A stretch of DNA of 64,000 bases from Escherichia phage vB_EcoM_G2248: sequence record MK327932.1; one strand, given 5' to 3'. Both the position numbers and the translations under genes were made by a program. Every line of letters starts with the position of its first letter. Position 1 is the first letter of the stretch. Positions 3,205 to 60,807 of the stretch are shown here, piece after piece. The notes under the pieces are model-generated. The model was not told where the DNA came from and searched no databases. It worked only from the letters and a program-made list of their open reading frames with translations.

Positions 3205-5028
3205 TTATGATTGCATCCAAATTTTGCGCTGATCTGCATCTTCACTATAGAGCAAATCGAATAGCTCTTTATAGTTTTCCGGTAACGTGATGATCTCCAT
3301 GACAGGATCGTTGATCACGCGATGATAGTCTGATTCTGTGAGCGATGCTAAACCTTTGATATATCGAATGTTGTAACCTTTGATATTATCTCGGTCGTTC
3401 TCGAAATCTTCTAGGTCATAATACCATCGAACATCATCACCTTTCTTTGGTTCCGCAATGATAATAGGTGTTTTGATAAACCGGATTCGTCCATCTTCGA
3501 ACAATTCAGGCCAACGTGCAAAGAAAGAGATCAGACTAGGTTTAATAGACCCGATCCCGTCAGTATCAGCGTCTGTCATAATCGCAATATTTTTGTATTG
3601 CATAACGTCCAGCGCATCAACACCAAATTGCAAACCAGTGATCGCCATGATGTTAAAAATTTCGGCGTTCTTAACGATCTTTGCCTCTGGTTGTTCCCAC
3701 GTTGTAAGAGTTTTACCTCGCAACGGGAAACCGCCATGTAAATCTTGATCACGTACAGAGATCAGATAGTTGATCGCGGAATCACCTTCCGTCAAAAACA
3801 GGGTAGTTTCTGCGTCAGTTCCAATAAGGTTAGCTTTAACGTGTTTTGCCACCTTAGCCCGTTTCGCTGCCTTTGCTGCCTTAGTCGCTGCCGCTTTATC
3901 TGCTGCCTCTTTGCGTGCCAGGACTACAGCAATAATAGGCATGATAATGTTTTCTTTCTTAGCAATGACTTTAGCCAGCTTTTTAAAATCCAGATCAATG
4001 TGTCGCTTGATATCACCAGTTGGGTTAGTCAAGCGTTCTTTTGTCTGTGAATCAAAACGAAGGTTAGGCAATTCACGAACAATAAGAATACAGGTCAATC
4101 CAGACTTAACCGCAGCTTTAGTAACATCAACCTTATATTCTTTCTTGATTCGTTTTACAATCTCTTCACAAAGATCATCTGTCACGTAGTCTACGTGTGT
4201 TCCCCCGTTTTTGGTAAACAGACCGTTAGCAAAGGATACTGATTTAAAACCTTCTCCCTCGACCGCCGGAACTAGGGCAAGTGAAAAGTTTTTATCTTCA
4301 ATGACAAACGGATCATCATTGTATAGTTTAGCATAATCCTTGAACTTGCTGGTTATCTTTTTGCCATTAAACTTAAACGTGATCTTAGGAAAGATTACAC
4401 TCAATGAATACATTCGATCGCAAATCACATCTGAAATTTCTTGTGACATGATCATACCTTCAAAATGATCGAAATCGGGGCAGAACGTAACCTTAGTTCC
4501 TTTCAGTTTTGACGGCTTAGATGACCAGCTAATATTTTCTGCACCATTGGTACATTGAACGGTCAGTTCATTCTCTCCGTCACACGTCACACCAGTAAAC
4601 CAGGACGAGAAAAATGATGTGAGCGCGCTTCCGATCCCATTCATACCCATAGTAACACGATTTGTATCATCAAAGTTAGACCCTGCTTTAGCTCGTGTCC
4701 ATGCAGCAACTGGTTGTGGAATCTGTTTCCCTTCTGGCGTCGTAACAATATGTTGCGGAATACCGCGACCATTATCTGTTACTGACACAATGTTATCTTT
4801 TATATCCACACTAATAACATTAGCGTACTCAAAATTAGTGCGGATCGCCTCGTCCACAGAATTGTCGATAATTTCATCAATAATTTTAACTAGACCGGGA
4901 ACGTATGAAACTTTGGTCCATTTTCCAAATAGGAAACGATTGTGTGATTCATAAGTCGTTGACCCGATGTACATTGAAGGTCTCTTAAGACAGTGAGCGC
5001 GATCATCCAACAGCAAAAATTCAGACAT
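3205..5028 (-). CDS. 39: DNA topoisomerase II large (ATPase) subunit, gp39 with gp60-equivalent C-terminus fused
   Basis: 607 aa; GyrB-type GHKL ATPase motifs (DNGRGIP, GLHG-like) and TOPRIM-like region; length matches T2-type uninterrupted 39 rather than split T4 39+60. Confidence 0.9.
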   Translation of the reverse strand: MSEFLLLDDRAHCLKRPSMYIGSTTYESHNRFLFGKWTKVSYVPGLVKIIDEIIDNSVDEAIRTNFEYANVISVDIKDNIVSVTDNGRGIPQHIVTTPEGKQIPQPVAAWTRAKAGSNFDDTNRVTMGMNGIGSALTSFFSSWFTGVTCDGENELTVQCTNGAENISWSSKPSKLKGTKVTFCPDFDHFEGMIMSQEISDVICDRMYSLSVIFPKITFKFNGKKITSKFKDYAKLYNDDPFVIEDKNFSLALVPAVEGEGFKSVSFANGLFTKNGGTHVDYVTDDLCEEIVKRIKKEYKVDVTKAAVKSGLTCILIVRELPNLRFDSQTKERLTNPTGDIKRHIDLDFKKLAKVIAKKENIIMPIIAVVLARKEAADKAAATKAAKAAKRAKVAKHVKANLIGTDAETTLFLTEGDSAINYLISVRDQDLHGGFPLRGKTLTTWEQPEAKIVKNAEIFNIMAITGLQFGVDALDVMQYKNIAIMTDADTDGIGSIKPSLISFFARWPELFEDGRIRFIKTPIIIAEPKKGDDVRWYYDLEDFENDRDNIKGYNIRYIKGLASLTESDYHRVINDPVMEIITLPENYKELFDLLYSEDADQRKIWMQS

Positions 5029-5034
5029 ATTATA

Positions 5035-5778
5035 TCATTCTCCGTCAGTTCGTTTCAGGTATTCCAATGCCGCATATAATCTTTGAGGATCGTCTTTGAA
5101 CATCCCTAATCCGGCATTACATTTTCCACAAAGAACACCTCTTATCTTACCAGTCTTATGATTATGGTCAAGATGTTTCCACTTTTGGCGTTTTCTCACG
5201 CCGCATCGTTCATTTATGAATTTTACACCGCATATCTCGCAATTGTCAACTCTGCCTAAAATTTCTAACGCTTCTCTTTTTGATATTTTTATACCATTTT
5301 CGGCATGATGATATGGCCTATCTAGTTCTCGCTCTCGCTTCTCAAACAATCGACACTCATCAGAACAATACTTTTGAGATACGTTTATTGCAACAAATGG
5401 TTTACCACATTTAGCGCATTCTCGTTCAATCTTTATGTTTTGTGCCTGGTCCAACGATGCGCAACGAGAACAGCAAAATTTATGATAGCCTTTAGAGTAT
5501 GTATGATAATTTACAGGATTTGGGCATCTTGCACATTTAACTATTCCTGTTATTCCGTGGCGCAATCTATAAACAGCCTCGTTATATGGTTGTTGATTTC
5601 TGAGACCTCCATTACAGAACTTAAACTCATTCCTTATAATCTGAAATTCAGCAGGATACAATTTTTCCATTTCTGGAATTTTATTTTCTTTAAAAAGATT
5701 TGAGTTTAGTCTATTTCCGCTTTTCGCCTCCAGAACATCAACAATAAACTTTTTGATGTTCACTTTTTCTCTCTCCAA
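5035..5778 (-). CDS. HNH endonuclease of the Endo VII type with N-terminal zinc-ribbon repeats (probable homing endonuclease)
   Basis: C-terminal HLDHNHKTGKIRGVLCGKCNAGLG matches the T4 endonuclease VII catalytic signature; several CxxC...CxxC ribbons upstream; locally AT-rich. Confidence 0.65.
   Translation of the reverse strand: MEREKVNIKKFIVDVLEAKSGNRLNSNLFKENKIPEMEKLYPAEFQIIRNEFKFCNGGLRNQQPYNEAVYRLRHGITGIVKCARCPNPVNYHTYSKGYHKFCCSRCASLDQAQNIKIERECAKCGKPFVAINVSQKYCSDECRLFEKRERELDRPYHHAENGIKISKREALEILGRVDNCEICGVKFINERCGVRKRQKWKHLDHNHKTGKIRGVLCGKCNAGLGMFKDDPQRLYAALEYLKRTDGE
5035..5778 (-). mobile_element. free-standing HNH homing-endonuclease-like gene inserted between topoisomerase and dexA
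   Basis: endonuclease signature plus compositional shift; no T4 counterpart at this position. Confidence 0.45.
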
Positions 5779-26088: not shown

Positions 26089-27114
26089 CTAACTTTTTGC
26101 GCTATTTACTTCGGCTAAAAGTTCATCAGAAATACGCTTGACCGCCGCAAGTTCTTCCGGTTCTAGGTTTTGTTCTTCCAGATATTCATAGACCATCTGA
26201 ATAGTGCTTTTAACTTCAATAACACCTGTTTCCTGTGATGCGCTACTCTCCAGTTTATGGACCACTTTTAGCTTGTGTACAACGGCCTCTAACGCGCTTT
26301 CTAACTTAGTTAACCCATTATCAGCAACCGTTGCGATAAGACGCACACTAAGCCCCTTAAAGCGTTCTACATCGATTTTATCATCTGACGGGTAAGTGAT
26401 ACGCACATGATAAGTTTTGTCATTCTGGATAAACTCTTTTTTGTGTGTATCGGTATCGAATACCCAAAACCCACGCGGATCGTTTTCGTCACCCGCCGTT
26501 AGTGTGTATGGTGTACCAATATACGTTACGTTACCGCCATCACTGATAGTATGAAAGTGACCCGAAAACACTTCACGGTATTTCTTGAGGAAGTCCGCGC
26601 TATAACCTTCGGATTTTAGCCCTTTATAGAAATAGTAACCGGACAATTCCCAATGGCCTACACAATATTCGCTGAATGAGTTTTGAATAAACTCTAAAAT
26701 CTCTGATTTATTGTCATCACAAAACCACGGGAACAGATCAAATGATACACCATCAAAGGTAACTGTTTCCGGTTTATCGATAACCTTAATGCAATCATAC
26801 TGGCTTAACACTTCACGCGGTGCGTTAGGCTGGATCTTGTTTCGTTTAAACATATCATGATTCCCGACCGTGGTATAACAAGTAATATCAGCCTCTTCCA
26901 GTAGCGGTATGACCTTAGTACGGTTAAATTTCATGGTTTCATGGGTAATTGCTTTTCGGCAATCAAACCAATCCCCTGTTTGAATCCATGTCTTAATATT
27001 ATGCTCTTTGGAGTATTCAACCGCTTTCTTGATGGTGTCAAGAATATACTCATGCACCCACGGATCATCGCCACCGATACCAGTATGCAGATCACCTAAA
27101 AGCAAAATTTTCAT
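26089..27114 (-). CDS. 47: recombination endonuclease subunit gp47 (Mre11/SbcD-like phosphoesterase)
   Basis: 341 aa; calcineurin-like motifs (MKILLLGDLH, GNHD). Confidence 0.9.
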   Translation of the reverse strand: MKILLLGDLHTGIGGDDPWVHEYILDTIKKAVEYSKEHNIKTWIQTGDWFDCRKAITHETMKFNRTKVIPLLEEADITCYTTVGNHDMFKRNKIQPNAPREVLSQYDCIKVIDKPETVTFDGVSFDLFPWFCDDNKSEILEFIQNSFSEYCVGHWELSGYYFYKGLKSEGYSADFLKKYREVFSGHFHTISDGGNVTYIGTPYTLTAGDENDPRGFWVFDTDTHKKEFIQNDKTYHVRITYPSDDKIDVERFKGLSVRLIATVADNGLTKLESALEAVVHKLKVVHKLESSASQETGVIEVKSTIQMVYEYLEEQNLEPEELAAVKRISDELLAEVNSAKS

Positions 27115-27205
27115 AGTCTCTTCCTCTCTTCGTTTTCGATGCTCTCACTATATCACAGAAAAATAAAAAGGGAAACCCCTTTCAGAGTCTCCCTTATAAA
27201 AGCCA

Positions 27206-45250: not shown

Positions 45251-45280
45251 ATTTGATTCTCCTTAGTTGGTATGGTTATC

Positions 45281-45308
45281 ATTATACGGGGATTTCTCCC
45301 CGTGTCAA
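45281..45308 (-). promoter_or_regulatory. early promoter cassette with spacer palindrome
   Basis: TTGACA-CGGGGAGAAATCCCCG-TATAAT. Confidence 0.55.
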
Positions 45309-45311
45309 CAA

Positions 45312-46892: not shown

Positions 46893-49037
46893 TTATTCAC
46901 GTCCATTTGTATAGTAGTGTTTGAATCGACCGTAACCAGTTTCAATGGTCATTGTTCTTTGGTGAACAATAGCCCAATAACCGTTACAGGAATCTTGCAG
47001 ATACAAATCTTTACCTTTCATAAACTCATTAAAGATTGTTTTCTGCCAGTCATAATAGACAGAATCTTCAATCTTATCCATCCAACCGTGTGGGTCTTCA
47101 AGCAGTTCAACAAGTTCATCGATAACCCAATACGGACACGGACTAAATCGACCTTTACTAAATTCGTTGAACACAGTAACGGTTTTAGCTTCCGGTCTAG
47201 GTTCATCAGGTTCTTCCGGTCGACGATTAACCACAACCTGAACATATTTTGTATAACCGATAATTTCCCCAGAGTCCAACTCATCGTTATTGTTCTGGTC
47301 AGCAAAAGCAACGAATCTATAGACTCCAGAGTCACCTATAGTAGCATTAACTTTTGTGTATATCGGTGTTTTGGGATCGATAATCGGCAACCGAACACCA
47401 TTTTTACTAAACTCATACGTTGGAACGTATGTAGAAGGAGGATTTAATGTCGTTGCTTCTAATGTCAAAGTATCCCCTTCCATAATCTGTACAGGATGAG
47501 GTCCGTCAAATTCCATATTAGGAACAACTTCAACATTATAGGTTGCACGCCCTGCAATATCATAATCATGATGCGCACTATATGGGTCTACACTAGGACT
47601 ATCTCTATATTCATGCGCCCAAATGCCATTATGTTCACGATCCGCAGAGTCAGTAATTTTATACTCTTTAGCCTCAATTGGTAGTTCGGTCACAAAAACA
47701 TCATTTTTTGTTATAACCAAAGAACGAGTTTGAGTAAAATCGCTACTTGCGGGTGGCTCTGGATCGACGATCTTAATAACAATAGGTTCACCAACCTCAA
47801 TATTTCGATAATCGTATTCTTTGTCATAAATGTCAAGCATACGACGGTCGTAAAATAATGGCCTTCCTTTATTGAGGTCATATGCACCATCTTGATTAGA
47901 AGGGGCAACTAGTAATTGTAAAGCAACGCTATTATCATACTGCAAGTCCGATAAAGTAATTCGGTCATAACCTTCATCGCCATATTTTTTGCTTTGTAGA
48001 GTTTTACCACCCAACATCCACGTAAAATAAACATTATTATTAATCAAACTATAATGTCGATTCCACGTATTATCGGATGTTACTAATGGCATATCTAGAT
48101 TGACGGTGGACCCAGAAGGATAACGAAATTCAACGGAATTAAAATCACGATCAAAAAATTCATTGTCTTTGATTGTTACCGTGAATCTATGACGATCACC
48201 ATCAATATATGCTGTCCCTTCTCTGGTTTCACTTGCGGCCTTATATGCACGAACCAAAGCAACATAAACACCCGCATCGGTTTCTTGAGCATGTTTCGTT
48301 ACAAACAGAGTCCTGTCTGTAGATTCATAAATTAAGCTACCATCTTCTCTTTCCAGACGATAACGGACAACGGTATATTCATCATTGGCGGGAGAATCGT
48401 CTGTCACCGTAAAATAGACAGGAGCATATTTCTGTGCGTTAAAAATTTCCGCGCTTTCCTGAATGGTGGCCTCAAACGGATAAACAAATTTCACGTCACC
48501 CGCTTCATCGCTAAGTTCCATTCTATATGTGCCAGAAAATTCAGGCCATGCAAATTTTGCAATTTTAAATTCACGATGGTCTAAACCAAGATCCCCGTCA
48601 ATAGTATCAACAAGACCGTCATTATAATAAAGGTCGATAGAAATGTTTTCTGGGATATGAATACGAAAAACAATTTTAGCCTTTATTTCGTCACCAACCA
48701 CAAAGGAAGTTGGAGGATATACATATTCAACATACTGATTATCAAATAATTCAAATGTGAAATTTTCCGTGCCGATATCAACGGATTCACCAGCAAAATC
48801 ATTATCATCTTGGGCATAGCCACGAACATTAACAGACCATCCTGTTTTATCGCTTTCTTTCACAGATTTTAATTCAAAAGACGGTGTATCGGTTGTAGCA
48901 ACAACCACCCCACCTTTTTTCCAAACATAACCTTTTTTCGGTTTAGTTGGATCATCTGATTCGGCAGCAATTGAGCACGCGAACGTATGAGGAAGCCAAA
49001 TGGTTGTGTTAATGCTAGTATCTTTTACTTCTGGCAT
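46893..49037 (-). CDS. large beta-rich protein, function unknown
   Basis: 714 aa; strong SD GGGGGAA; repetitive beta-strand-like segments and distinct C-terminal domain; followed by terminator 46856-46883. Confidence 0.55.
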   Translation of the reverse strand: MPEVKDTSINTTIWLPHTFACSIAAESDDPTKPKKGYVWKKGGVVVATTDTPSFELKSVKESDKTGWSVNVRGYAQDDNDFAGESVDIGTENFTFELFDNQYVEYVYPPTSFVVGDEIKAKIVFRIHIPENISIDLYYNDGLVDTIDGDLGLDHREFKIAKFAWPEFSGTYRMELSDEAGDVKFVYPFEATIQESAEIFNAQKYAPVYFTVTDDSPANDEYTVVRYRLEREDGSLIYESTDRTLFVTKHAQETDAGVYVALVRAYKAASETREGTAYIDGDRHRFTVTIKDNEFFDRDFNSVEFRYPSGSTVNLDMPLVTSDNTWNRHYSLINNNVYFTWMLGGKTLQSKKYGDEGYDRITLSDLQYDNSVALQLLVAPSNQDGAYDLNKGRPLFYDRRMLDIYDKEYDYRNIEVGEPIVIKIVDPEPPASSDFTQTRSLVITKNDVFVTELPIEAKEYKITDSADREHNGIWAHEYRDSPSVDPYSAHHDYDIAGRATYNVEVVPNMEFDGPHPVQIMEGDTLTLEATTLNPPSTYVPTYEFSKNGVRLPIIDPKTPIYTKVNATIGDSGVYRFVAFADQNNNDELDSGEIIGYTKYVQVVVNRRPEEPDEPRPEAKTVTVFNEFSKGRFSPCPYWVIDELVELLEDPHGWMDKIEDSVYYDWQKTIFNEFMKGKDLYLQDSCNGYWAIVHQRTMTIETGYGRFKHYYTNGRE

Positions 49038-51567: not shown

Positions 51568-51927
51568 TTAGTCACGGGAAGACAACCCAGCCATAAAACG
51601 GCTTAACAGTGTGTCGCGATAAGCAAAGCATAATTGCTTATCAGGGGCAGTATCACACAGGTTGCGTTTTGTTTTAGCAAAGCTGGCAATACTCAGATCC
51701 CATGCTCGATTTTTTCGTTTTTCGTCTCGACCTTGTTTGTATGCTTCATCAAGTTCGAGCGCGATAAAATCACTACACATGTTATCATCATCACAGAAAG
51801 TTTTAATGATCTTTTTGTTGATCTCAAATCCTTTGTATTCGAACTTTGGATAATGGCGCTCATTACTAGCAAGCGCACCAGCCGATAACATCATAGCAAT
51901 CATAGCAATTATTGTCAACTTTTTCAT
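51568..51927 (-). CDS. small secreted protein (signal peptide)
   Basis: 119 aa; N-terminal MKKLTIIAMIAMMLSAGALA. Confidence 0.5.
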   Translation of the reverse strand: MKKLTIIAMIAMMLSAGALASNERHYPKFEYKGFEINKKIIKTFCDDDNMCSDFIALELDEAYKQGRDEKRKNRAWDLSIASFAKTKRNLCDTAPDKQLCFAYRDTLLSRFMAGLSSRD

Positions 51928-51934
51928 ATATTCC

Positions 51935-52525
51935 TCAATAGCGTTTAGTCTTAAGAATGCCTTTACTCTTTAGATGGTTGGCCTTTTTTAGTACGTCATC
52001 AGCATAACCTAATCCGGCTTTATAGTTCCATCCAGCATTGTAAGAAGCTAGCGCGAGTCGGATATTACCGTTTCGAACATCCAGCCAGTATGCTAACTCA
52101 TCCATCGCGTAGAATGCAGAAACCTCGCGATTCATGATAAAGTTGATAGTCTGGCGATCACTCATTTTAACACCGCGCTTTGCATTTTTCGCTTTCACCG
52201 TTTTAAGGTAATTTTGAAATAATCCATAAGCATGATGATTTTTCTTTGGTGCTAAGTTTGCACCCGCGCTTGATTCTTGCCATGCGATACCCGCCAGGAT
52301 GTGGCCTAAACCCTTTCCGTCATAGCGAATATTCGGATGGTCATTTTTCAACTTACCGCTTTTCTCGAATTGTTCGCCATATTGATAGGCGAAATGTAAA
52401 TTATCTAGTTGGTGTGCTGTAAAGTTGTCTATCGGCGCTTTTTTGATCGGTGCGCTAGTCGATGCGTGTGTAGCACCAACGGCTAGTGACAGACTCAATA
52501 CTATCGCTTTTAGAACTTTTAACAT
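51935..52525 (-). CDS. secreted lytic transglycosylase (SLT domain)
   Basis: 196 aa; signal peptide; SLT catalytic motif GIAWQESS and AYNAGWN. Confidence 0.65.
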   Translation of the reverse strand: MLKVLKAIVLSLSLAVGATHASTSAPIKKAPIDNFTAHQLDNLHFAYQYGEQFEKSGKLKNDHPNIRYDGKGLGHILAGIAWQESSAGANLAPKKNHHAYGLFQNYLKTVKAKNAKRGVKMSDRQTINFIMNREVSAFYAMDELAYWLDVRNGNIRLALASYNAGWNYKAGLGYADDVLKKANHLKSKGILKTKRY

Positions 52526-52612
52526 TAATTTCTCCTGTTTGGCTTAACTTTCTGATTCCATAATATAGCCCTATCACCAGAAAGTCAAGCATTATTTTTA
52601 ACCAATTTTCCA

Positions 52613-53035
52613 TTATTGGTCTACCTTCAAAACAACCGCCGACATTTTACCCGCCAGTCGTTTTGGATTCTCTATAATCATTCGACAGCATAGACCGTGA
52701 TATGGCTTACCCTCTTCGATTAGATCTACTGTCATCCCGATCCACATGTTGCCGTCAGTAATTTCTAATCGATTAGGTCGGTCTTCCATTTTCAGGAAGT
52801 CGAAGATCTCCGGCAAACGAGTTTCTATCTTATTGAATAATTCCATTGTCTTATGTTCATCGATATGACGATCGGTTAGACGGTCGATCATATGCGGACT
52901 AAAGCGAATGAAAATATACTCACCGTAACCATCATTCAAGCACTTTTCTTTGATCTGCGCATTGGTTTTGCGCATTTCGGTTTCGAAGAATCTACGCAGC
53001 TTACTACGGCGAACATGTACGTTAATTGTTTCCAT
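52613..53035 (-). CDS. regB: RegB endoribonuclease
   Basis: start at internal ATG (METINVHVRRSKLRRFFE...) paralleling T4 RegB; RLEITDGN block. Confidence 0.6.
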   Translation of the reverse strand: METINVHVRRSKLRRFFETEMRKTNAQIKEKCLNDGYGEYIFIRFSPHMIDRLTDRHIDEHKTMELFNKIETRLPEIFDFLKMEDRPNRLEITDGNMWIGMTVDLIEEGKPYHGLCCRMIIENPKRLAGKMSAVVLKVDQ

Positions 53036-53039
53036 TTTA

Positions 53040-53375
53040 TTATCCTTTCTTAAACAAATTGCGAATCCAGTATACAAACGGGATTTCTTTAAACTTGAAT
53101 TTCTCTATAGTTAATTCTTTAGTAGCAAGATGAATACCATAAGCATCATGTGTCACGATATGCCATTTTCTATAGTCCAAATGTGAACAACCGTCTGGAT
53201 CTAGGTTAATAAGAGTTTCTCGCTCACTAGGATTATTTTTCCACAATTTTGTAATAGGATCGCACATAATTCGACCTAGCGTACCATGAATAATCTCACA
53301 ACGGTAAAGTTTTCCAGCAGTGAGATAGGCGCACCCGTCATAGTCGGTATAAACAAACACTTCTTTAATACTCAT
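53040..53375 (-). CDS. hypothetical protein (triplet family, CxHLD...W)
   Basis: track ORF overlaps promoter 53404-53432; ATG at 53373-53375 (MSIKEVF...). Confidence 0.45.
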   Translation of the reverse strand: MSIKEVFVYTDYDGCAYLTAGKLYRCEIIHGTLGRIMCDPITKLWKNNPSERETLINLDPDGCSHLDYRKWHIVTHDAYGIHLATKELTIEKFKFKEIPFVYWIRNLFKKG

Positions 53376-53403
53376 TTTAATACTCCTTTGTTTCGATGGG
53401 GGT

Positions 53404-53432
53404 ATATTACTACCCCCGTTTTGTTGTGTCAA
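53404..53432 (-). promoter_or_regulatory. early promoter cassette, stem-loop enclosing the -10
   Basis: TTGACA-N17-TAATAT within GGGGGTAGTAATATACCCCC. Confidence 0.5.
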
Positions 53433-53693
53433 CTACTTTTTCAAGATTTTTTTAATTGCGTTCCAAAGACCTTTATTCTCAGGTTGTTTTGGTTCTTCGA
53501 TCAGTGTCCATGTTCGACCGTCTAAGTGTGCACAATTTTTAAGACAAATAAAAATCTGGTGTCCCTTATCATCACGGATATAACCACTATTCGCAAATCT
53601 TTCATGTGGTGTATATTCATACAGTGTATTTGGTGTAATATACTTGCGGTTACTATAAGGTGTCATCACATACATCATGGTACTAACTCCCAA
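53433..53693 (-). CDS. hypothetical protein (triplet family)
   Basis: 86 aa; ...GYIRDDKGHQIFICLKNCAHLDGRTW. Confidence 0.45.
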   Translation of the reverse strand: MGVSTMMYVMTPYSNRKYITPNTLYEYTPHERFANSGYIRDDKGHQIFICLKNCAHLDGRTWTLIEEPKQPENKGLWNAIKKILKK

Positions 53694-53869
53694 CGATCAC
53701 CGCGAAGATGAGAACATCCACCATCAAGAAGTATCGTAATACGATAACCTATATCATCTTTGATGTAACCGATTGTCGGTGGATTTTCGTCGTCTCGTGC
53801 CGGGGTAAAATCATACATCTTTCCGGGCGTAATATCTTGTCCTTTATTACTATTGGTATAAACTTGCAT
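53675..53869 (-). CDS. hypothetical protein (triplet family)
   Basis: 64 aa; ...GYIKDDIGYRITILLDGGCSHLRGDRW. Confidence 0.45.
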   Translation of the reverse strand: MQVYTNSNKGQDITPGKMYDFTPARDDENPPTIGYIKDDIGYRITILLDGGCSHLRGDRWELVP

Positions 53870-53890
53870 TTTCTTAATCTCCTATATTAA

Positions 53891-54589
53891 CTAACCACGG
53901 GTATAGTGTTCCAGAACAACGGTCAGATGAATATATTCTAATAGATCTTTCCAAAAGTCAACATCTGGTTCTTCCGGCATACCGTTTTTCTTTGCCTCTT
54001 CACGCGCGAGTTTAACACGCTCGTAGAGATCTTTCAATTCTTCCCGCACATTATCAAAGGTTCTTTCTCCTAACTTACACGCTAAGATAGAAGAACGTCG
54101 CGCGAGCGGGAATTGTAGATCACCAGTTTGATAGATTTCAAGTAGCTGATAACCAACACGCAGAGCATGAGAAAGATCTTTCCAGTTACTGAAATACTTT
54201 TCAGATTTGGCTACCTGTTTCTTGAGATAACCAGACAAACCCCACATACCAACATGATAGAATTTATCGCGATGTGTTCGGATGTATTCCCATTCTCTGG
54301 AGGATTCGATCAACATGTTACTAGGCGCGTGCACCATATCAATAGCGCCGATATCACCTTTACATGCCAGATTGATAAACCGTTTTAGACTGAACATATT
54401 AACGTCAATATCGTCTTTGGTGTTCTTGATACCTTGACCGCTAGTGCTTTGGTCATAGTGTTCTTTCATCGATCCTAAGATAATTTCTTTCGCAGTCGGA
54501 ACAAAGATACCACGATAATCTTTATCGGAATTTTCAGTATCAAGGCCGTATAAGTGAGATCCGAAGACCATTTTAACCATTGTATGCAT
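53891..54589 (-). CDS. nucleotidyltransferase-fold protein (Pol-beta-like minimal NTase)
   Basis: 232 aa; hG[GS]x9-13DxD signature FGSHLYGLDTENSDKD, downstream acidic DIDV, helical C-terminal half. Confidence 0.5.
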   Translation of the reverse strand: MHTMVKMVFGSHLYGLDTENSDKDYRGIFVPTAKEIILGSMKEHYDQSTSGQGIKNTKDDIDVNMFSLKRFINLACKGDIGAIDMVHAPSNMLIESSREWEYIRTHRDKFYHVGMWGLSGYLKKQVAKSEKYFSNWKDLSHALRVGYQLLEIYQTGDLQFPLARRSSILACKLGERTFDNVREELKDLYERVKLAREEAKKNGMPEEPDVDFWKDLLEYIHLTVVLEHYTRG

Positions 54590-54638
54590 AATTAAACCCT
54601 CAGTTGATTAAGAGATTGCATCATATCATCATAAAACG

Positions 54639-54664
54639 AAAAAGCCAACCCTTTTCGGATTGGC
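54639..54664 (-). terminator. rho-independent terminator after the GrcA-like gene
   Basis: hairpin GCCAAUCC-GAAAAG-GGUUGGC + U5. Confidence 0.55.
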
Positions 54665-54675
54665 TTGATGAAAAA

Positions 54676-55092
54676 TTAGAGAGATTCGGTAAAGGTACGA
54701 GCGATAACATCACGTTGCTGGTCTGGAGTCAGACTATTGAAGCGCACTGCGTAACCAGAAACGCGAATTGTAAGCTGCGGGTACTTCTCAGGATTAGCAA
54801 CAGCATCCAGAAGAAGGTCGCGACTCATCACATTGATATTCGCGTGCTGACCACCTTCGACAACCGGAGCACCATTATCTACAATCACCGGACGGAAGCT
54901 AGTTGTGTGCAGTGCCAGCGAATCGACGTCTTCTTCGGTGATCACATGGTCTTCTGCGAAAGTTTTACTAACAATTACTTTAGCGCCGATCAGTGCTTTC
55001 GGTTCGGATACCAAAATCATAGGCGCGAAGTGTCCACCGATAATAGTACCTTTATGCTCACCTTTCATGATTTGAATTGCTTTAAATTCCAT
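54676..55092 (-). CDS. autonomous glycyl radical cofactor (GrcA/YfiD-like)
   Basis: 138 aa; C-terminal glycyl-radical signature [32 protein letters not shown]. Confidence 0.8.
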
Positions 55093-55226
55093 AATTCACC
55101 TCTTATAGATCAGGACGTTCGTCATTAATTTTACCAACCAAAACACCATAGAGTTTATCAGGTTGGATTTTACGATTCTTTTTAATTGTAGCACGAAATC
55201 GACGAGCTACGCTATCTTTATTTTCA

Positions 55227-55718
55227 TTAGTTGATACCTAAGCCAATGAAAATAGGTTGGTCTTCTACATTACCCATCCCAACACTAAGTCGATTCAATT
55301 CTAAAAACTGCAATACGCTGTCAGTAAATCCGCGCATGGTAGTATCTAGGATAAAAATTGTTTTGTCAAGACTACGACCTCGCCATGTGATCGGATTCAG
55401 GAAAGTTCGGATCGACGTACAATCTACATCTGAAATATTTACATTTTCACCACGACCGCGATCTCGGATCGTTTTGGCATGTTCCCGCGTTGTTGAAACG
55501 ATAAAGACACTATAGCCTTTTCGCGTATAATGGTCATATAACTTGATTGTAGCGTCTGTATGCCCTGTCTGACGGCCTAAATTGATTGAGACAATGGAAT
55601 CTAGGTCATCAGCAAAATTGCGTCGCTTACGGCGTTCCATGATGCCATTTACAGCAGATACACACGCAGCATAAATCAAATCTTTACTTTCTAATTCTAA
55701 ATCAATGTCAATATTCAT
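55227..55718 (-). CDS. hypothetical protein
   Basis: ATG at 55716-55718 with GGAG SD (MNIDIDLELE...). Confidence 0.45.
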   Translation of the reverse strand: MNIDIDLELESKDLIYAACVSAVNGIMERRKRRNFADDLDSIVSINLGRQTGHTDATIKLYDHYTRKGYSVFIVSTTREHAKTIRDRGRGENVNISDVDCTSIRTFLNPITWRGRSLDKTIFILDTTMRGFTDSVLQFLELNRLSVGMGNVEDQPIFIGLGIN

Positions 55719-55780
55719 GGTAAAGTCTCCAGTGAACGGGGAGAGATCCTTAGATTGTCTCCCCATTGATGGTTAATATT

Positions 55781-56356
55781 TTATTTTGGATCTGGGAAAT
55801 TCAATAGAGCATATTCTCCATAAAATTTCCTAGCTGCATTATCATAAGCGATTGCAGCTTCGATTTCTGTGTCATATTGTCCAAGAACATGTCTTTGTAG
55901 GTTGACCATTATACTAGCTCTCCATTTCTTACGCAAATCCTTCCTGTTACACTTACTAACACCCTTATACACACTAGAAAACTTTTTAGACTTCTTCTTT
56001 CTATTATGTTGATTTTGCGCGTCGGTTGCCTCCCTAAGATTTGGAGGATTGTTATTAGCAGGATTACCGTCAATATGATCAATTAATCTAACTTGCGTCC
56101 CATGTTCTAGAAACCAAACAACCCTATGCACGAATAGATGAACTCTAGGAAGACCGTCATCTCTACTATGCCAAAATCTAAGATGACCATCTTTATTTGT
56201 TCTGACTTTAACTAAATCGCCGTGTTTATATCTACTCCCTAATGGTCGTCCTTTGATAGCTTTACTATCGACTCTATAATATAAGATACCCTCTATATGA
56301 GCATATCTAAGTTTTATCTCGTTTTGTAGGGATTCATCCCAATATTTAAAAGCCAT
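55781..56356 (-). CDS. HNH homing endonuclease with C-terminal AP2 DNA-binding domain
   Basis: 191 aa; HNH motif IDHIDGNPANNNPPNLREATDAQNQHN; AP2-like YKGVS...WRASI...YDNAARKFYGEYALLNFP; AT-rich. Confidence 0.75.
   Translation of the reverse strand: MAFKYWDESLQNEIKLRYAHIEGILYYRVDSKAIKGRPLGSRYKHGDLVKVRTNKDGHLRFWHSRDDGLPRVHLFVHRVVWFLEHGTQVRLIDHIDGNPANNNPPNLREATDAQNQHNRKKKSKKFSSVYKGVSKCNRKDLRKKWRASIMVNLQRHVLGQYDTEIEAAIAYDNAARKFYGEYALLNFPDPK
55781..56356 (-). mobile_element. free-standing HNH-AP2 homing endonuclease gene
   Basis: domain architecture typical of phage homing endonucleases; compositional shift; own SD and a hairpin upstream. Confidence 0.5.
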
Positions 56357-56401
56357 TTTATAATCCTCACAAAGCCAGCGATTAAGCTGGCTTGATTTTA
56401 G

Positions 56402-56791
56402 TTATACCGGGTCTGGATATACCTTTTTATCGAGTTCCATATGCGGTCCGTCTTTAAAAGTAACCCAATCAACACCGCAGATAACAGGAACACCCAATTC
56501 TCGACCAGCTTGTTTAAATGCATCCGCGATCATGCGGTAGTATTTCATGTTCCATGTATCCTTATCTTTCGGATACGCTACAACGTCAACCGCGAAACCG
56601 TGAAGATGACGAGATTTCATAGTCTTAGATTTACCTTCCGCAACATATTTCTTTTGCGTTTCTAGACTACGTACACCTTCCGTAATACCAAAATCGACCG
56701 GAGTCAGTTCTAACGCACGATGAACGACTTTTACCAGGTCAGGATGCACACCAACAAGCCGATCTTTGCTTCTTTGAGATAATTTAAACAT
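56402..56791 (-). CDS. peptidase M15-type cell-wall peptidase (candidate endolysin)
   Basis: 129 aa; zinc-ligand pattern SRHLHGFAVD ... DGPHME as in L-Ala-D-Glu peptidase endolysins. Confidence 0.65.
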   Translation of the reverse strand: MFKLSQRSKDRLVGVHPDLVKVVHRALELTPVDFGITEGVRSLETQKKYVAEGKSKTMKSRHLHGFAVDVVAYPKDKDTWNMKYYRMIADAFKQAGRELGVPVICGVDWVTFKDGPHMELDKKVYPDPV

Positions 56792-56819
56792 TATTCACCC
56801 CCTTTGTGAGTGATAATAT

Positions 56820-57011
56820 TTAGATTCCGGCGATCCTGCATAGAGTTCTTGTATTAGCACCAATCAGGATCGCATTAACGACAACCATTCCCCAATCAAC
56901 CCACTGATTATTATAAATGCTAAACCCGTTTGCAAGACCAAATACAAGCATTCCGGTACACATACTCAGAGCAATAATCAACATCACGGTAAAACCAAAT
57001 GCAAATTTCAT
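56820..57011 (-). CDS. small membrane protein
   Basis: 63 aa, two TM-like segments. Confidence 0.45.
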   Translation of the reverse strand: MKFAFGFTVMLIIALSMCTGMLVFGLANGFSIYNNQWVDWGMVVVNAILIGANTRTLCRIAGI

Positions 57012-57012
57012 A

Positions 57013-57279
57013 TTATTTTCCTTTTCTCTGTTTACGTTTATAAAAGTAATACATTACCTCATCACGTCCGGTGATCCAACATGCTAGGGCGGTAAACAGG
57101 TTTACAATTCCCAACACACCTACTGACGCGGCGCTGTCAACAGACATAGGAACAGTAAAGGCCATAGCTAACATAGCAACGCCACAAATGACATTAAGCA
57201 CCATTATAATAAGACCGAAGAAAACCATTGTCAATCCTCCGACACAAGAAAACCAACAATCACGCCAGTGATAAGACAT
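57013..57279 (-). CDS. small membrane protein
   Basis: 88 aa, hydrophobic, basic C-terminus. Confidence 0.45.
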   Translation of the reverse strand: MSYHWRDCWFSCVGGLTMVFFGLIIMVLNVICGVAMLAMAFTVPMSVDSAASVGVLGIVNLFTALACWITGRDEVMYYFYKRKQRKGK

Positions 57280-57422
57280 GATGCGCCGCTAATCAGACAA
57301 CCCGCACCAAGTGATTCCCACCAGATCAGAGAAGCGACAATAACACAGAATCCCCATACTACCGCAATCACAACATAGGCAAGGGTCGCCCAAAACATAT
57401 ATTTGTTCATAATAAATCCCAT
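57231..57422 (-). CDS. small membrane protein
   Basis: 63 aa, hydrophobic. Confidence 0.4.
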   Translation of the reverse strand: MGFIMNKYMFWATLAYVVIAVVWGFCVIVASLIWWESLGAGCLISGASCLITGVIVGFLVSED

Positions 57423-57595
57423 TCACCAAACAAATAAGAAAAAAGCCATATCAACAGAAACGAGGCAATTGATCCGGCAAGCAAAATGATATTAGAGAAT
57501 CCGCCGTCTATCCAGGCGACAAAACAGAATACGCCAGTATAGAAGCATAAACCCATTACAAAGCATACTATAAGCAACCATAGACAAAACGCCAT
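57407..57595 (-). CDS. small membrane protein
   Basis: 62 aa, hydrophobic; GGAGGG SD. Confidence 0.45.
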   Translation of the reverse strand: MAFCLWLLIVCFVMGLCFYTGVFCFVAWIDGGFSNIILLAGSIASFLLIWLFSYLFGEWDLL

Positions 57596-57639
57596 AGAAA
57601 GCCCTCCATCGAGATAAATTAGTGCGGGTAGGGGACTGC

Positions 57640-57798
57640 ACTACCCGCTTTGTTAATCATCGCAGAGCGTGTTCTAGAACGATTCCACACCAACCGCTAA
57701 CCACACCAAAACACACAGCAACAAGCAGATTCATTCGGTCTTTTGGAATCATCGCAAACAGAACAACACCCACACAGAAAGCCATCACCATTGAAGTT
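57640..57798 (-). CDS. small membrane protein (about 52 aa)
   Basis: untracked ORF MVEQMLTSMVMAFCVGVVLFAM...; coordinates approximate. Confidence 0.3.
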
Positions 57799-57817
57799 AA
57801 CATTTGTTCAACCATTA

Positions 57818-58156
57818 TCACACCTTTAAAGTCATAGACGCATAAACATTAATGCCAGGCCAGTTAGGATCGCAATTATACTCAACATCCCACAAATAAA
57901 GCGGTTTAGATGTATCAGCCAAGTTTTTAAAATCTTCTACCCACATTTCAAGGCTATATGATGGATAAACTAGGCTATCATATCCGCCGTAACGTTGGCC
58001 TACTGGTCGGTCAGTAAAAACTACATCAAGATCCGGTAATTCTTTTTCAAGGATAACCGCCAGCGCATAAATCAGACTGTCTTCCTTGTTACGCTGCCGA
58101 AGGACCGTTGTCAGTTGGTTTTTCTGGTTCACTAGCAAGCACCTCCACATTTTCAC
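57818..58156 (-). CDS. hypothetical protein
   Basis: 112-aa ORF; true start likely internal (overlaps upstream ORF). Confidence 0.4.
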   Translation of the reverse strand: MKMWRCLLVNQKNQLTTVLRQRNKEDSLIYALAVILEKELPDLDVVFTDRPVGQRYGGYDSLVYPSYSLEMWVEDFKNLADTSKPLYLWDVEYNCDPNWPGINVYASMTLKV

Positions 58157-58409
58157 AGAATGAAATTTTCACAGACACAATTTTACCATAAGTGAAGAAT
58201 GAATATACATTATCGAGATATTCAACGTCACCTACAATCACATCAAACTGAGGATCAGCCACCGCCGCAACATATTCTACCAGTTCATCAAGAGAATGCA
58301 ACTTAATTTCATCAATTCGGCTGTATTTGGTTGCATCTTTGATTTTAAAACCACGTTCTTTCAGCTTATCAATTAGAATTTCACGCGGAGTTTCAAACAG
58401 TTTGCTCAT
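58089..58409 (-). CDS. hypothetical protein
   Basis: 106-aa ORF. Confidence 0.45.
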   Translation of the reverse strand: MSKLFETPREILIDKLKERGFKIKDATKYSRIDEIKLHSLDELVEYVAAVADPQFDVIVGDVEYLDNVYSFFTYGKIVSVKISFCENVEVLASEPEKPTDNGPSAA

Positions 58410-58430
58410 AATATAATCCTCACATTAAAT

Positions 58431-58631
58431 CTAAAATTTGTTAACGACGAATTGCATAATTAGACTAATCACAAACATTGCAAACCAAGTATAAATGCAA
58501 CAGATAAAAGCTACATACAATTCAATCTGGTCAGAGAATACACCGGGTAAAAGCATTAGCAAAATAACAACAGTAAAAACGCTAGCGATACCCGCAACAA
58601 AACCAATATCATTTTTACTAATCGTCATCAA
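58431..58631 (-). CDS. small membrane protein
   Basis: 66 aa, two TM-like segments. Confidence 0.45.
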   Translation of the reverse strand: MMTISKNDIGFVAGIASVFTVVILLMLLPGVFSDQIELYVAFICCIYTWFAMFVISLIMQFVVNKF

Positions 58632-58825
58632 GTCACCGTTTTGTAAAGAAACACAATAAAATCCCAGACAAAAAAGACAGTGAAAATAATCATCGTCAAG
58701 ACAATAAACACTGTCAGATTTTCATCGTTAGTTAATTCATGACCGTCCATCCATATAATCACCAGATAAAACATCGAAATCAAGGAGGCGAATACCAAAT
58801 TATAAAACTCTTCCTTTAATGACAT
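58628..58825 (-). CDS. small membrane protein
   Basis: 65 aa. Confidence 0.45.
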   Translation of the reverse strand: MSLKEEFYNLVFASLISMFYLVIIWMDGHELTNDENLTVFIVLTMIIFTVFFVWDFIVFLYKTVT

Positions 58826-58826
58826 A

Positions 58827-59009
58827 CTACACCTCGTCGCGGCTTAAGTCAACAGCAATTGCATACAGCATAATGAATATGCTAGCCGATCCGAGAATCA
58901 ATACACCCTCACATTTTGAAACTCGCTCATCAAAATGTAACATTATCCATCCGAGGATGTTAAAGGCGCAGACCGCGCCTATGTTCGCTAACCAATTAAT
59001 CTTTTTCAT
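58827..59009 (-). CDS. small membrane protein
   Basis: 60 aa. Confidence 0.4.
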   Translation of the reverse strand: MKKINWLANIGAVCAFNILGWIMLHFDERVSKCEGVLILGSASIFIMLYAIAVDLSRDEV

Positions 59010-59017
59010 AATATACC

Positions 59018-59344
59018 TTAGAAAGAAACAGTTTTCAAGAAATCCAGATTTTTAGTACCGAAAACAGAAAAGTAGTGTTTTCCTTTTTCGGTTTTAGAGA
59101 AAGCGATTGTCTTCTCTACATGGTGACGGAAGCCAGACAGACGATCACCCAGGTCAAGGCGGCAAGCGTAAGTAGTGCCGTTTTCGAAAGTAACCTCGAT
59201 TTGAGTTTTGTCATATTCGCTTTCATAGGCTTTTGCTGCCGCGTCCTGTGCTTTACGCTCGAAGTCTTCGAAGTGGAATACTTCGTTTGCGTTAGCGAAT
59301 ACAGAAGATTCAGAGAAGATAACTTTAACAGATACTGGTTTCAT
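59018..59344 (-). CDS. hypothetical protein
   Basis: 108 aa; GGAGTATCAAAATG start; promoter at 59387-59415. Confidence 0.5.
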   Translation of the reverse strand: MKPVSVKVIFSESSVFANANEVFHFEDFERKAQDAAAKAYESEYDKTQIEVTFENGTTYACRLDLGDRLSGFRHHVEKTIAFSKTEKGKHYFSVFGTKNLDFLKTVSF

Positions 59345-59386
59345 TTTGATACTCCTTAGTAGTTCGTGTTTCGTTTCGATGGGTGT

Positions 59387-59415
59387 ATTATGCTATACAC
59401 CCTCTCTCGTGTCAA
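59387..59415 (-). promoter_or_regulatory. early promoter
   Basis: TTGACA-N17-CATAAT then ACACCCATCGAAACGAAACAC leader. Confidence 0.55.
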
Positions 59416-59423
59416 CAACTTTT

Positions 59424-59612
59424 TTAGTCTTTTTTCATAATTTCTAGAGCAGTTTCTACAGCACCTTTCCAACCTTCCCACATAATGGACATAGTAAGGA
59501 AGTTAAAGCACCCGCAGGAATCAACCTTTTTAGAGATAAACCATTCTACAAACGCTTCGCTCATACCATGCTCTTTAGCGGATTCGCGTAATTGTTCAAT
59601 TTGGTCTTCCAT
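59424..59612 (-). CDS. hypothetical protein
   Basis: 62-aa ORF. Confidence 0.4.
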   Translation of the reverse strand: MEDQIEQLRESAKEHGMSEAFVEWFISKKVDSCGCFNFLTMSIMWEGWKGAVETALEIMKKD

Positions 59613-59634
59613 AGTATCACCTCAACACTTAACG

Positions 59635-59829
59635 TTATTCAAACTCAAACGGTCTATTCATCCTATTGTAAAAGTACATATAACAAGCATAGTTATGTTT
59701 TGGTTGTACCGTATCAGATAGACACGCTTTTACAGCCTCGCGGTCCGATGGGTCTACACCCTCAGCTTTAAGTAATGCTAAAATCTGGTTATAGCGTACT
59801 CTTAGTTGTACTAATGGTTTATCCCCCAT
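59635..59829 (-). CDS. hypothetical protein
   Basis: 64-aa ORF. Confidence 0.4.
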   Translation of the reverse strand: MGDKPLVQLRVRYNQILALLKAEGVDPSDREAVKACLSDTVQPKHNYACYMYFYNRMNRPFEFE

Positions 59830-59838
59830 ATTACCCCC

Positions 59839-60060
59839 TTATAGTTGATCAGCGATGTAAGCGTGACAAGCGCGGAGTTTCATTAATGCACTACCTTTCA
59901 CTTCGCCTACGATGTTCATAACTTCTAAGCGGTCGGATGGATTCATCTTAGAGCACCAGATCTGGTTAGCCAATTCCAGTTTACTCATATTTGGTTCCAT
60001 CTCAAACAGTTCACGCTCAAAGTCGATAATTTCTTTTGCTGCGTCTTTAAAGTTAATCAT
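59839..60060 (-). CDS. hypothetical protein
   Basis: 73 aa; GGGAGAATCAAAATG start; promoter at 60090-60118. Confidence 0.5.
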   Translation of the reverse strand: MINFKDAAKEIIDFERELFEMEPNMSKLELANQIWCSKMNPSDRLEVMNIVGEVKGSALMKLRACHAYIADQL

Positions 60061-60089
60061 TTTGATTCTCCCGTTTCGTTGATGGTTGT

Positions 60090-60118
60090 ATTGTAGGGGA
60101 GTTATCCTCCCCTGTCAA
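60090..60118 (-). promoter_or_regulatory. early promoter cassette with spacer palindrome
   Basis: TTGACA-GGGGAGGATAACTCCCC-TACAAT. Confidence 0.55.
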
Positions 60119-60126
60119 CACTTTTA

Positions 60127-60312
60127 TCAGAAATATGCAATATAGTTTGCCAGTCCTACAGAGTCATCATTCGGCATTGCTTTTACTGCCAGTTCAAACC
60201 CTACTTCAACTTTCTGTTTAGCGGATTCTTCGTTATAACCCCAGATTACCAGAATAGCTACTACGTTTTCTTTGCTTACTGCTTTCAGTGCTTTAGTGAT
60301 GCGACGTGCCAT
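60127..60312 (-). CDS. hypothetical protein
   Basis: 61 aa; GGAGAATCAAATTATG start; promoter at 60359-60387. Confidence 0.5.
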   Translation of the reverse strand: MARRITKALKAVSKENVVAILVIWGYNEESAKQKVEVGFELAVKAMPNDDSVGLANYIAYF

Positions 60313-60358
60313 AATTTGATTCTCCGTTTAAGAAAGTGTGTTTCGTTTCGATGGGTGT

Positions 60359-60387
60359 ATTATGCTATAGGCCGGATCTGGTGTCAA
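60359..60387 (-). promoter_or_regulatory. early promoter
   Basis: TTGACA-N17-CATAAT then ACACCCATCGAAACGAAACAC leader. Confidence 0.55.
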
Positions 60388-60415
60388 CAACTTTTTTAAA
60401 AAAATTTTAGGCAAT

Positions 60416-60439
60416 AAAAAAGCCACTCCGAAGAGTGGC
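60416..60439 (-). terminator. rho-independent terminator ending the structured RNA region
   Basis: hairpin GCCACUC-UUCG-GAGUGGC + U6. Confidence 0.6.
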
Positions 60440-60584
60440 TTATAGGGAAGGTAGCGAATCTTCCTTGTCTCCAACCTGCTAGCGGCCTAGCAAGTGAATG
60501 CTTTAGCGTACCGGATCGCCCATACGCTGCAATAAATGCGGCTAGGTGACGTCCAAATCATTCTAACCGCGCTGTCTTTAGTTC
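60416..60584 (-). ncRNA. candidate structured small RNA between a late-promoter motif and a terminator
   Basis: about 170 nt without convincing ORF; four consecutive hairpins (8-bp GCGGTTAG/CTAGCCGC, 6-bp AGCGTA/TACGCT, 8-bp CTTGCTAG/CTAGCAGG, 5-bp GGAAG/CTTCC) then terminator GCCACTC-CGAA-GAGTGGC + U-run; TATAAATA at 60590-60597 upstream. Confidence 0.35.
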
Positions 60585-60588
60585 ACTA

Positions 60589-60807
60589 TTATTTATATCG
60601 CTTTCTCTCGCGACGTTTTTGATCTTCTTCCTTGATAGAGTTAAATGCATCAAAAAGACACATGACACTAATAATAAACATAACCGTATTTTCTACGGTA
60701 TCCCACGGCTTCGCATCAGTACAGATCCCCCAAACGGTAAGAAATGCAAATAAGGCAGAAGAGATCACAAGAATGATACTTGCTAAAATATAAAAAGTCA
60801 TTTTCAT
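60589..60807 (-). CDS. small membrane protein
   Basis: 72 aa, hydrophobic N-terminus, basic C-terminus. Confidence 0.45.
   Translation of the reverse strand: MKMTFYILASIILVISSALFAFLTVWGICTDAKPWDTVENTVMFIISVMCLFDAFNSIKEEDQKRRERKRYK
60590..60597 (-). promoter_or_regulatory. candidate T4-type late promoter (TATAAATA)
   Basis: minus-sense TATAAATA overlapping the stop of ORF 60589-60807, directly upstream of the structured non-coding region. Confidence 0.35.

Follow-up and report, generated by a model that had tools for sequence, protein, structure and literature searches.

The window analyzed here is a 64,000-nucleotide stretch of the genome of Escherichia phage vB_EcoM_G2248 (MK327932.1). It belongs to Krischvirus (the RB49/JSE/Phi1 group of the Straboviridae), has rIIA at its beginning, and is colinear with RB49. 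At positions 55781..56356, an open reading frame (ORF) for 191 amino acids (aa) runs from ATG to stop on the minus strand, which an earlier note on this DNA did not specify. In coding-strand order, the M15 endolysin gene (56402..56791) is followed by this ORF, vs.8, a small ORF, vs.6 (encoding a glycyl-radical protein), and nrdC.11. The neighbors of the ORF are the Peptidase_M15_4 endolysin gene upstream and vs.8, a gene of unknown function, downstream, in agreement with the earlier placement between a hypothetical gene and an M15 peptidase gene. The locus comprises the following features, with the evidence for each in parentheses.

55738..55764, minus strand: hairpin GGGGAGA...TCTCCCC between the endonuclease stop and vs.8 (window aligned with JSE, Phi1, and kvi).
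55781..56356, minus strand: predicted free-standing HNH-AP2 homing endonuclease gene, 191 aa (ORF list, Pfam, PHROG, AlphaFold model).
55781..55796, minus strand: right junction, CCCAGATCCAAAATAA (P-D-P-K-stop), the original endolysin 3′ end and now the end of the endonuclease ORF (identity to endolysin termini of phages lacking the endonuclease gene).
55793..55972, minus strand: predicted AP2 DNA-binding domain, aa 129-188, a three-stranded sheet plus a helix (Pfam below cut-off, phmmer versus PDB, Foldseek).
56009..56134, minus strand: HNH_3 nuclease core, aa 75-116, with an I-HmuI-like beta-beta-alpha-metal motif (Pfam, homologue alignment, Foldseek).
55797..56482, minus strand: the whole mobile cassette, 686 nt, in place of 65 nt of the allele without the endonuclease gene (fixed differences; identity among carrier phages).
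56357..56401, minus strand: cassette spacer, 45 nt, with a hairpin and a Shine-Dalgarno sequence (sequence; present in carrier records only).
56402..56482, minus strand: variant, apparently foreign last 81 nt of the endolysin gene (divergence from phages lacking the endonuclease gene; found in the 13 carrier records only).
56402..56791, minus strand: endolysin of the Peptidase_M15_4, L-alanyl-D-glutamate peptidase type, with its 3′ end replaced (Pfam, E = 4.8e−8; PHROG 465 endolysin, E = 5.5e−63; RefSeq annotations).

The composition and the signals claimed for the gene in the earlier note are borne out. The ORF is AT-rich, with a GC content of 36.1% versus 40.2 ± 2.0% in 576-nt segments of the window, 2.1% of which are equally low. 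Its own Shine-Dalgarno sequence, GAGGA, lies 7 nt 5′ of the ATG (56364..56368), and just upstream of that sequence the spacer contains a hairpin with a perfect 8-bp stem, AAGCCAGC-TTAATC-GCTGGCTT (56372..56393), which the G5211 and TB34 records list as a terminator. Folded as RNA over the entire 81 nt, the spacer is not unusual (z = −1.65); the hairpin itself is real. We speculate that this hairpin might curb read-through from the endolysin gene and so result in low expression of the endonuclease. No T4-type late promoter, TATAAATA, was found in a search near the endonuclease gene, and scans for sigma-70-like and terminator-like signals were not above shuffled expectation, apart from picking up the spacer hairpin. 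The GGGGAGA...TCTCCCC hairpin is common to phages with and without the endonuclease gene and lies outside the cassette.

The HNH-AP2 architecture of the 191-aa protein is established. An HNH motif, described as canonical in the earlier note, is present at aa 93-118 (DHIDGNPANNNPPNLREATDAQNQHN), and the profile search that had been proposed as a refutation test (by a lack of any domain match) left that reading unrefuted: Pfam HNH_3 (PF13392) matches aa 75-116 above its cut-off (40.2 bits versus 24.8, E = 2.6e−10). The protein also matches PHROG 99 “HNH endonuclease” (E = 1.4e−43). The claim of an AP2-type domain stands on sequence matches to solved AP2 structures and on the modeled fold, and not on its Pfam profile. 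Pfam AP2 (PF00847; aa 129-180, E = 2.1e−5) remains below its cut-off (25.2 bits versus 33.3), whereas a phmmer search against solved structures matched the C-terminal part to the plant AP2 proteins WRI1 (E = 1.4e−9), TEM1 (E = 4.8e−5), and AtERF1 (E = 8e−4). The same kind of search matched I-HmuI (E = 5e−3). In an AlphaFold2 model built from the homologue alignment (pLDDT 92.8, pTM 0.84), the AP2 part folds into strands at aa 133-135, 145-151, and 154-161 and a helix at aa 164-182. Foldseek aligned this C-terminal domain to the AP2 domain of TEM1 (rmsd 1.3 Å over 63 columns, 41% identity) and to AtERF1 (TM 0.80), and the N-terminal part to I-HmuI 1u3e (rmsd 3.5 Å over 105 columns, 28% identity). 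A homologue search that took in 5.8 billion proteins yielded 47 relatives, many of which have precomputed matches to both PF13392 and PF00847; relatives of the endonuclease occur in 586 phage records. Across 40 aligned homologues, no change is seen at H94, N106, L107, R108, or N115, and conservation is at least 90% at D93 and N102. Residues D93, H94, N102, N106, and N115 are the putative catalytic residues of the HNH core.

Endonucleases of this class were described in 2004 (Magnani et al., Plant Cell; Wuitschick et al.) from a cyanobacterium, a ciliate, and phages that include RB49, as related in two later sources (PMC5318435, PMC1524935). Nolan et al. (2006) recognized RB49ORF040c as AP2 plus HNH, and Table 5 of Petrov et al. 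(2010) counts one HNH-AP2 gene in RB49, none in Phi1, and two in JSE (PMC2993671). One of the latter two is presumably EpJSE_00105 of JSE, which matches the window’s ORF in every nucleotide. The RB49 protein (RB49ORF040c/RB49p040) is like the window’s protein in its N-terminal HNH_3 and C-terminal AP2 domains, its length class (about 170-190 aa), and its origin from a free-standing gene of a T4-like phage; unlike it, RB49p040 is encoded upstream of gene 47, and the two proteins share 44% identity. We rejected RB49p040 as the window’s gene because it is a different locus, a site that is empty in the window. More generally, the genes for the next most similar proteins (44-52% identical) lie elsewhere in T4-like genomes: upstream of gene 47, RB49p040 among them, after gene 46 in Klebsiella phages, and upstream of gene 3 in Krischvirus AV108. 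The family is thus scattered over different sites, as would be expected of mobile genes. The 64-kb window contains no paralogue of the endonuclease, and we found no mapped cleavage site for the HNH-AP2 class in T4-like phages in the searchable literature.

The synteny comparison proposed in the earlier note revealed a presence/absence polymorphism at one exact site. Among 63 related phage records, defined as phage matches to positions 54600-57600 of the window, the endonuclease gene is present in 13, which cover that interval fully, and it is invariably at the same site; among the matches listed, 27 further records lack about 620 nt. Since two of the 13 carrier records are copies of JSE, they represent 12 phages (JSE, KMB43, G5211, TB34, SAP, PTE-Eco09, Whisky, phiS, FL04, pEJ01, JK32, and OZ035808). 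The type strains RB49 and Phi1 do not have the gene. Annotation of the gene varies from “homing endonuclease” (KMB43, SAP, PTE-Eco09, FL04) through “pathogenesis-related transcriptional factor and ERF protein” (TB34, JK32) to “hypothetical protein” (five carriers), and OZ035808 is unannotated.

Ungapped gene-to-gene comparison of the endolysin genes, from which the junctions were taken, delimits a cassette that consists, in coding order, of a new endolysin end (81 nt), the 45-nt spacer, and the endonuclease ORF minus its last 16 nt. Its junctions are identical in all 12 carriers examined. Two features of this arrangement were absent from the earlier note: the mobile unit exceeds the ORF, and the last 16 nt of the ORF are the old endolysin terminus. 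The same 16 nt end the endolysin gene in kvi, Cognac, G2494, and other phages without the endonuclease gene. In the homologue alignment, relatives of the endonuclease terminate 1-4 residues past the AP2 motif “LNF”.

At the other end of the cassette, the endolysin gene changes abruptly. Over nt 1-309, carriers and non-carriers differ by 2.2%, and diversity within each group is about 2%. Over nt 310-390, the two groups differ by 38.6% (61% identity), with a within-group diversity of 0.2% in carriers and 7.1% in non-carriers. The last 27 codons comprise 7 identical codons, 8 with synonymous differences, and 12 with amino acid changes, and the encoded tails read ...GVPV-ICGVDWVTFKDGPHMELDKKVYPDPV-stop in carriers versus ...GVPV-EWGGDW(T/V)SFKDGPHLQLPHSKYPD(P/Q)K-stop in non-carriers. 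Because the synonymous divergence is so deep in a gene that is otherwise ~98% identical, the comparison indicates that the 81-nt tail is of foreign origin and did not arise by mutation in place. The non-carrier form (EWGGDW...QLP..YP) is typical of the endolysin family, as judged from about 80 distant homologues, a minority of which end in “...GPHFELDRKVYP” and resemble the carrier tail; a minority tail type among endolysin relatives in IMG/VR, “PHFELDRKVYP”, resembles it as well. We did not find a donor, that is, a phage or contig with the variant tail or with a close copy of the gene beside an endolysin. Scans of IMG/VR and JGI metagenomes with the endonuclease gave nothing above 55% identity, and in a tblastn search with the variant tail, the best match outside Krischvirus was to a cyanophage (69%).

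To place the cassette in its genomic backgrounds, we compared 12 carrier loci (window included) with 8 non-carrier loci. Identity among carriers is 99.3-99.9% in the cassette, 89.2-96.4% in the left flank, and 96.3-99.6% in the right flank; carriers have a nucleotide diversity of 0.000-0.008 within the cassette, compared with 0.011-0.035 in the sequence around it. For the window itself, the closest relative of either flank is a non-carrier: kvi for the left flank and Cognac for the right. Directly outside the cassette, divergence between the groups equals diversity within them. All 635 of the 635 columns with fixed differences between the 12 carriers and the 8 non-carriers across window positions 51600-60600 fall inside 55797..56482, and no co-conversion tract is detectable beyond the cassette in that interval. 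Since the fixed differences are confined to the cassette, any protection from self-cleavage within ±4 kb must lie there. Sensitive blastn searches with the variant tail plus hairpin, and tblastn searches with the tail, recovered the 13 carrier records only. Such linkage of tail and gene does not by itself prove the location of the target, because no recombination occurs inside 81 nt that are 61% identical. On these alignments, Krischvirus endolysin C-termini exist in two non-recombining forms tied to the element. With a polymorphic site and inserted DNA that is nearly invariant in diverged backgrounds, the earlier description of the gene as a predicted mobile HNH-AP2 endonuclease holds.

We are therefore highly confident that the gene is a free-standing HNH-AP2 homing endonuclease gene. 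As the full explanation of the locus, we favor, as reasonably probable, present or recent intronless homing among Krischvirus phages, with the endolysin 3′ end as its target. The seg and mob genes of T4 are established examples of intronless homing (PMC2988022, PMC2993671). In the proposed sequence of events, a carrier and a non-carrier phage would co-infect one cell, and the enzyme would nick or cut the non-carrier genome in or beside the last ~80 nt of the endolysin gene. Recombinational repair would then copy the 686-nt cassette from the carrier. The carrier would be immune, as the cassette supplies a recoded endolysin 3′ end and parts it from the old terminus. Enzymes of the I-HmuI type are nickases with a single active site, I-HmuI itself nicking just one of the two strands, so the first lesion could likewise be a nick.

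Because the cassette is the sole consistent difference within 9 kb, we infer that the most economical place for the target would be the 65 replaced nucleotides or the junction. Within this segment, the GGGGNGGGG run, which encodes the conserved W-G-G of the endolysin, is perhaps a candidate recognition element. All 8 non-carrier endolysin tails contain it and none of the 12 carriers does; in the carriers, W-G-G is replaced by C-G-V (TGC GGT GTT), and the site reads GGGGTGGGG in the empty allele and TGCGGTGTT in the carrier. The 64-kb window has no copy of GGGGNGGGG (expected 0.26). A preference of AP2 domains for GC-rich targets is reported (PMC10448857, which cites Magnani 2004). We consider it conceivable, if rather unlikely, that the AP2 domain reads the G-rich GGGGNGGGG of W-G-G-D-W, so that the element would target the functional core of a lysis gene and survive via a recoded foreign end. 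In T4, free-standing endonucleases frequently cleave at a distance of hundreds of bases or more from the genes that encode them (PMC2988022), and the target here could lie beyond the 9-kb region.

The cassette can be compared with several known systems. I-HmuI of Bacillus phage SPO1 (PDB 1U3E) is similar in its HNH_3 core and N-terminal beta-sheet region, and by analogy the window’s enzyme may also be a nickase; I-HmuI differs in being intron-encoded and in that its C-terminal DNA-binding modules are helical, not AP2. The T4 genes for SegF, SegG, SegB, and MobE resemble the window’s gene in that they lie between conserved genes, show presence/absence polymorphism among close relatives, and are co-inherited with flanking DNA, the carrier allele of the neighbor differing from the sensitive allele (PMC2988022, PMC2330249, PMC2790892). 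However, these enzymes are of the GIY-YIG or mob-type HNH classes and their sites are mapped, whereas homing in the window is predicted from sequence. The cassette also departs from the T4 systems in two ways: the flank inherited with it is an 81-nt gene end of deep divergence, and its ORF now runs into the stop codon that once ended the host gene. IPA-HNH of ICP1-like vibriophages (Barth, Dunham and Seed 2023, PMC10448857) likewise combines HNH with a C-terminal AP2 domain, varies among isolates, includes frameshifted copies, and is found at genetic-exchange boundaries beside important genes. In contrast to the window’s protein, which matches Pfam HNH_3 directly, the HNH of IPA-HNH is too divergent for that profile, and it comes from another phage lineage.

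Could the element be an inactive relic? It would then have entered once, by homing or illegitimate recombination, would cut nothing now, and would persist through linkage to the essential endolysin 3′ end. The cassette would indeed be hard to lose, because a deletion would remove the sole endolysin terminus, and carriers make up just 13 of the 63 records. One copy, in pEJ01, has R108M at an invariant residue and a 1-nt deletion whose frameshift removes the AP2 domain, which could be either decay or a homopolymer sequencing error. However, the catalytic-motif residues are all intact in 11 of the 12 copies, and the variable sites among intact ORF copies (7 synonymous and 1 nonsynonymous, Q154K) point to purifying selection on the ORF. 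The cassette also varies far less than the DNA on either side of it, and its backgrounds have diverged by up to 11%, which argues for a recent move between lineages, although ordinary recombination could give the same pattern. Taken together, we regard an inactive relic as unlikely.

The same purifying selection would be compatible with a protein that mainly serves the phage, through exclusion of rivals by endolysin damage, recombination, anti-defense, or as an AP2-type regulator. Phage homing endonucleases that help against bacterial immunity have recently been reported (PMC13096335; bioRxiv 10.1101/2025.09.07.674715), and with the gene lying beside a lysis gene, cleavage of a rival’s genome would cost that rival dearly. 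Yet 50 of the 63 close-relative records do not have the gene, the locus gives no hint of a regulatory target, and selfish homing would lead one to expect just this combination of a replacement flank of its own, a single site, and near-identical copies. Moreover, rivals would be excluded as a by-product of homing, and such exclusion is no alternative to it. Co-option is, in our assessment, quite improbable. Finally, although presence/absence data alone give no direction of change, a non-mobile gene that was ancestral in Krischvirus and repeatedly lost deserves almost no credence and is effectively refuted by the junction anatomy: the polarity of the alignments is that of an insertion, and non-carriers are not deletion derivatives of carriers, because carriers keep of the family-typical tail (EWGGDW...QLP..YP) the 16-nt remnant after the endonuclease ORF alone, from which deletion cannot regenerate that tail, and the cassette is 3- to 10-fold less diverse than its flanks.

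Thus, a mobile cassette that homes into the endolysin 3′ end remains the explanation that we prefer. The gene is already known as a predicted homing endonuclease and its class is textbook material for T4-like phages; in the literature that we searched, we found no description of how the cassette is built, of the ORF running into the former endolysin stop, of the W-G-G recoding, or of the homing site that these features predict. These are refinements and do not define a new kind of element. For genome annotation the gene is of little consequence, as four GenBank records already say homing endonuclease, but it does call for caution with Krischvirus endolysin C-termini, whose two forms are tied to the element. 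The locus offers a clean natural example of such an element, with exact junctions, a readable direction, and the co-inherited, recoded end of an essential lysis gene, and the 65 replaced nucleotides provide a narrow and directly testable candidate homing site of an HNH-AP2 enzyme. If the AP2 domain does read the G-run, a selfish gene would have imposed a non-conservative change on a motif that the enzyme family conserves, and an arms race with the endonuclease would have left its trace in the diversity of the segment, which is threefold higher in non-carriers.

The 3′ part of the M15 endolysin gene is unusually diverse among Krischvirus phages that lack the homing endonuclease gene (HEG). Across the eight HEG-less loci (L002, L003, L004, and L111 to L115), nucleotide diversity of endolysin nt 310-390, which are equivalent to 56402..56482 of the window, averages 0.071 (maximum, 0.185) versus 0.024 in the remaining gene, a threefold elevation. 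Within this segment, GGGGNGGGG is kept in all eight non-carriers. The raised diversity could represent traces of past conversion or of selection acting on a cleavage site.

We also examined variation flanking the cassette, which comprises the variant endolysin 3′ end, the spacer, and the HEG except for its last 16 nt. At position 54886, in vs.6 and 0.9 kb off the cassette, a single SNP correlates strongly with carrier status, with G in 8% of carriers versus 88% of non-carriers; between this SNP and the cassette, no position is associated with carrier status across the 20 genomes. Given that only 20 genomes were compared, the association at 54886 is probably a sampling effect. Because of a 6-nt indel close to its 5′ end (about 55694..55712), the neighboring vs.8 gene is 492 nt long in the window, KMB43, G2494, and pEJ01 but 486 nt long in JSE, Phi1, kvi, and other phages. 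The annotated ATG of vs.8 (55718) has a GGAG of its own, and the longest open reading frame (55227..55766) begins 48 nt farther upstream.

Among the carriers, pEJ01 has a possibly defective copy of the endonuclease gene:

L110 (the pEJ01 locus) 4144..4718, endonuclease gene copy equivalent to 55781..56356 of the window

In this copy, R108M alters a residue that is otherwise invariant, and one nucleotide is missing from an A-run (ORF nt 374). The gene is annotated as two ORFs and has lost its AP2 domain. Either the element is decaying in pEJ01, or these changes stem from a sequencing error in a homopolymer.

Two sites that hold endonuclease genes in related phages are empty in the window, and a probable further endonuclease gene lies beside gene 39:

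about 27111..27115, empty RB49p040 site
54590..54675, third polymorphic endonuclease site (nrdC.11/vs.6 spacer), empty
5035..5778, minus strand, 247-aa ORF whose N-terminal part is rich in Cys and whose C-terminal domain matches Pfam Endonuclease_7 (E = 6e−16)

RB49p040 (565 nt, upstream of gene 47), an HNH-AP2 gene of RB49 known from the literature and absent here, is a paralogue of the HNH-AP2 gene under study (44% identical). The nrdC.11/vs.6 spacer contains a 528- to 531-nt gene in JSE, Whisky, and phiS and another HNH gene, of 594 nt, in FL04, JK32, and pEJ01. The JSE gene is annotated as “Homing endonuclease,” and its resemblance to the studied gene amounts to weak HNH similarity and nothing more. 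Gene 39 is separated from the small ORFs that follow by an 805-nt segment containing the Endonuclease_7 ORF; RB49 has only 66 nt at the equivalent place. The other endonuclease hinted at in the earlier note is probably this ORF, a free-standing gene of the Endo VII-motif kind.

Segmental differences from RB49 extend to another part of the window:

46893..49037, minus strand, 714-aa ORF in a 1,986-nt segment missing from RB49 (41 nt there)

This ORF has no Pfam match. Conversely, a 908-nt RB49 segment with the gp38-like adhesin gene RB49p079 is absent from the window, where 37 nt (about 45275..45311) are found instead. Together, the presence of the 714-aa ORF and the absence of the RB49p079 segment may represent an exchange of a host-range module.
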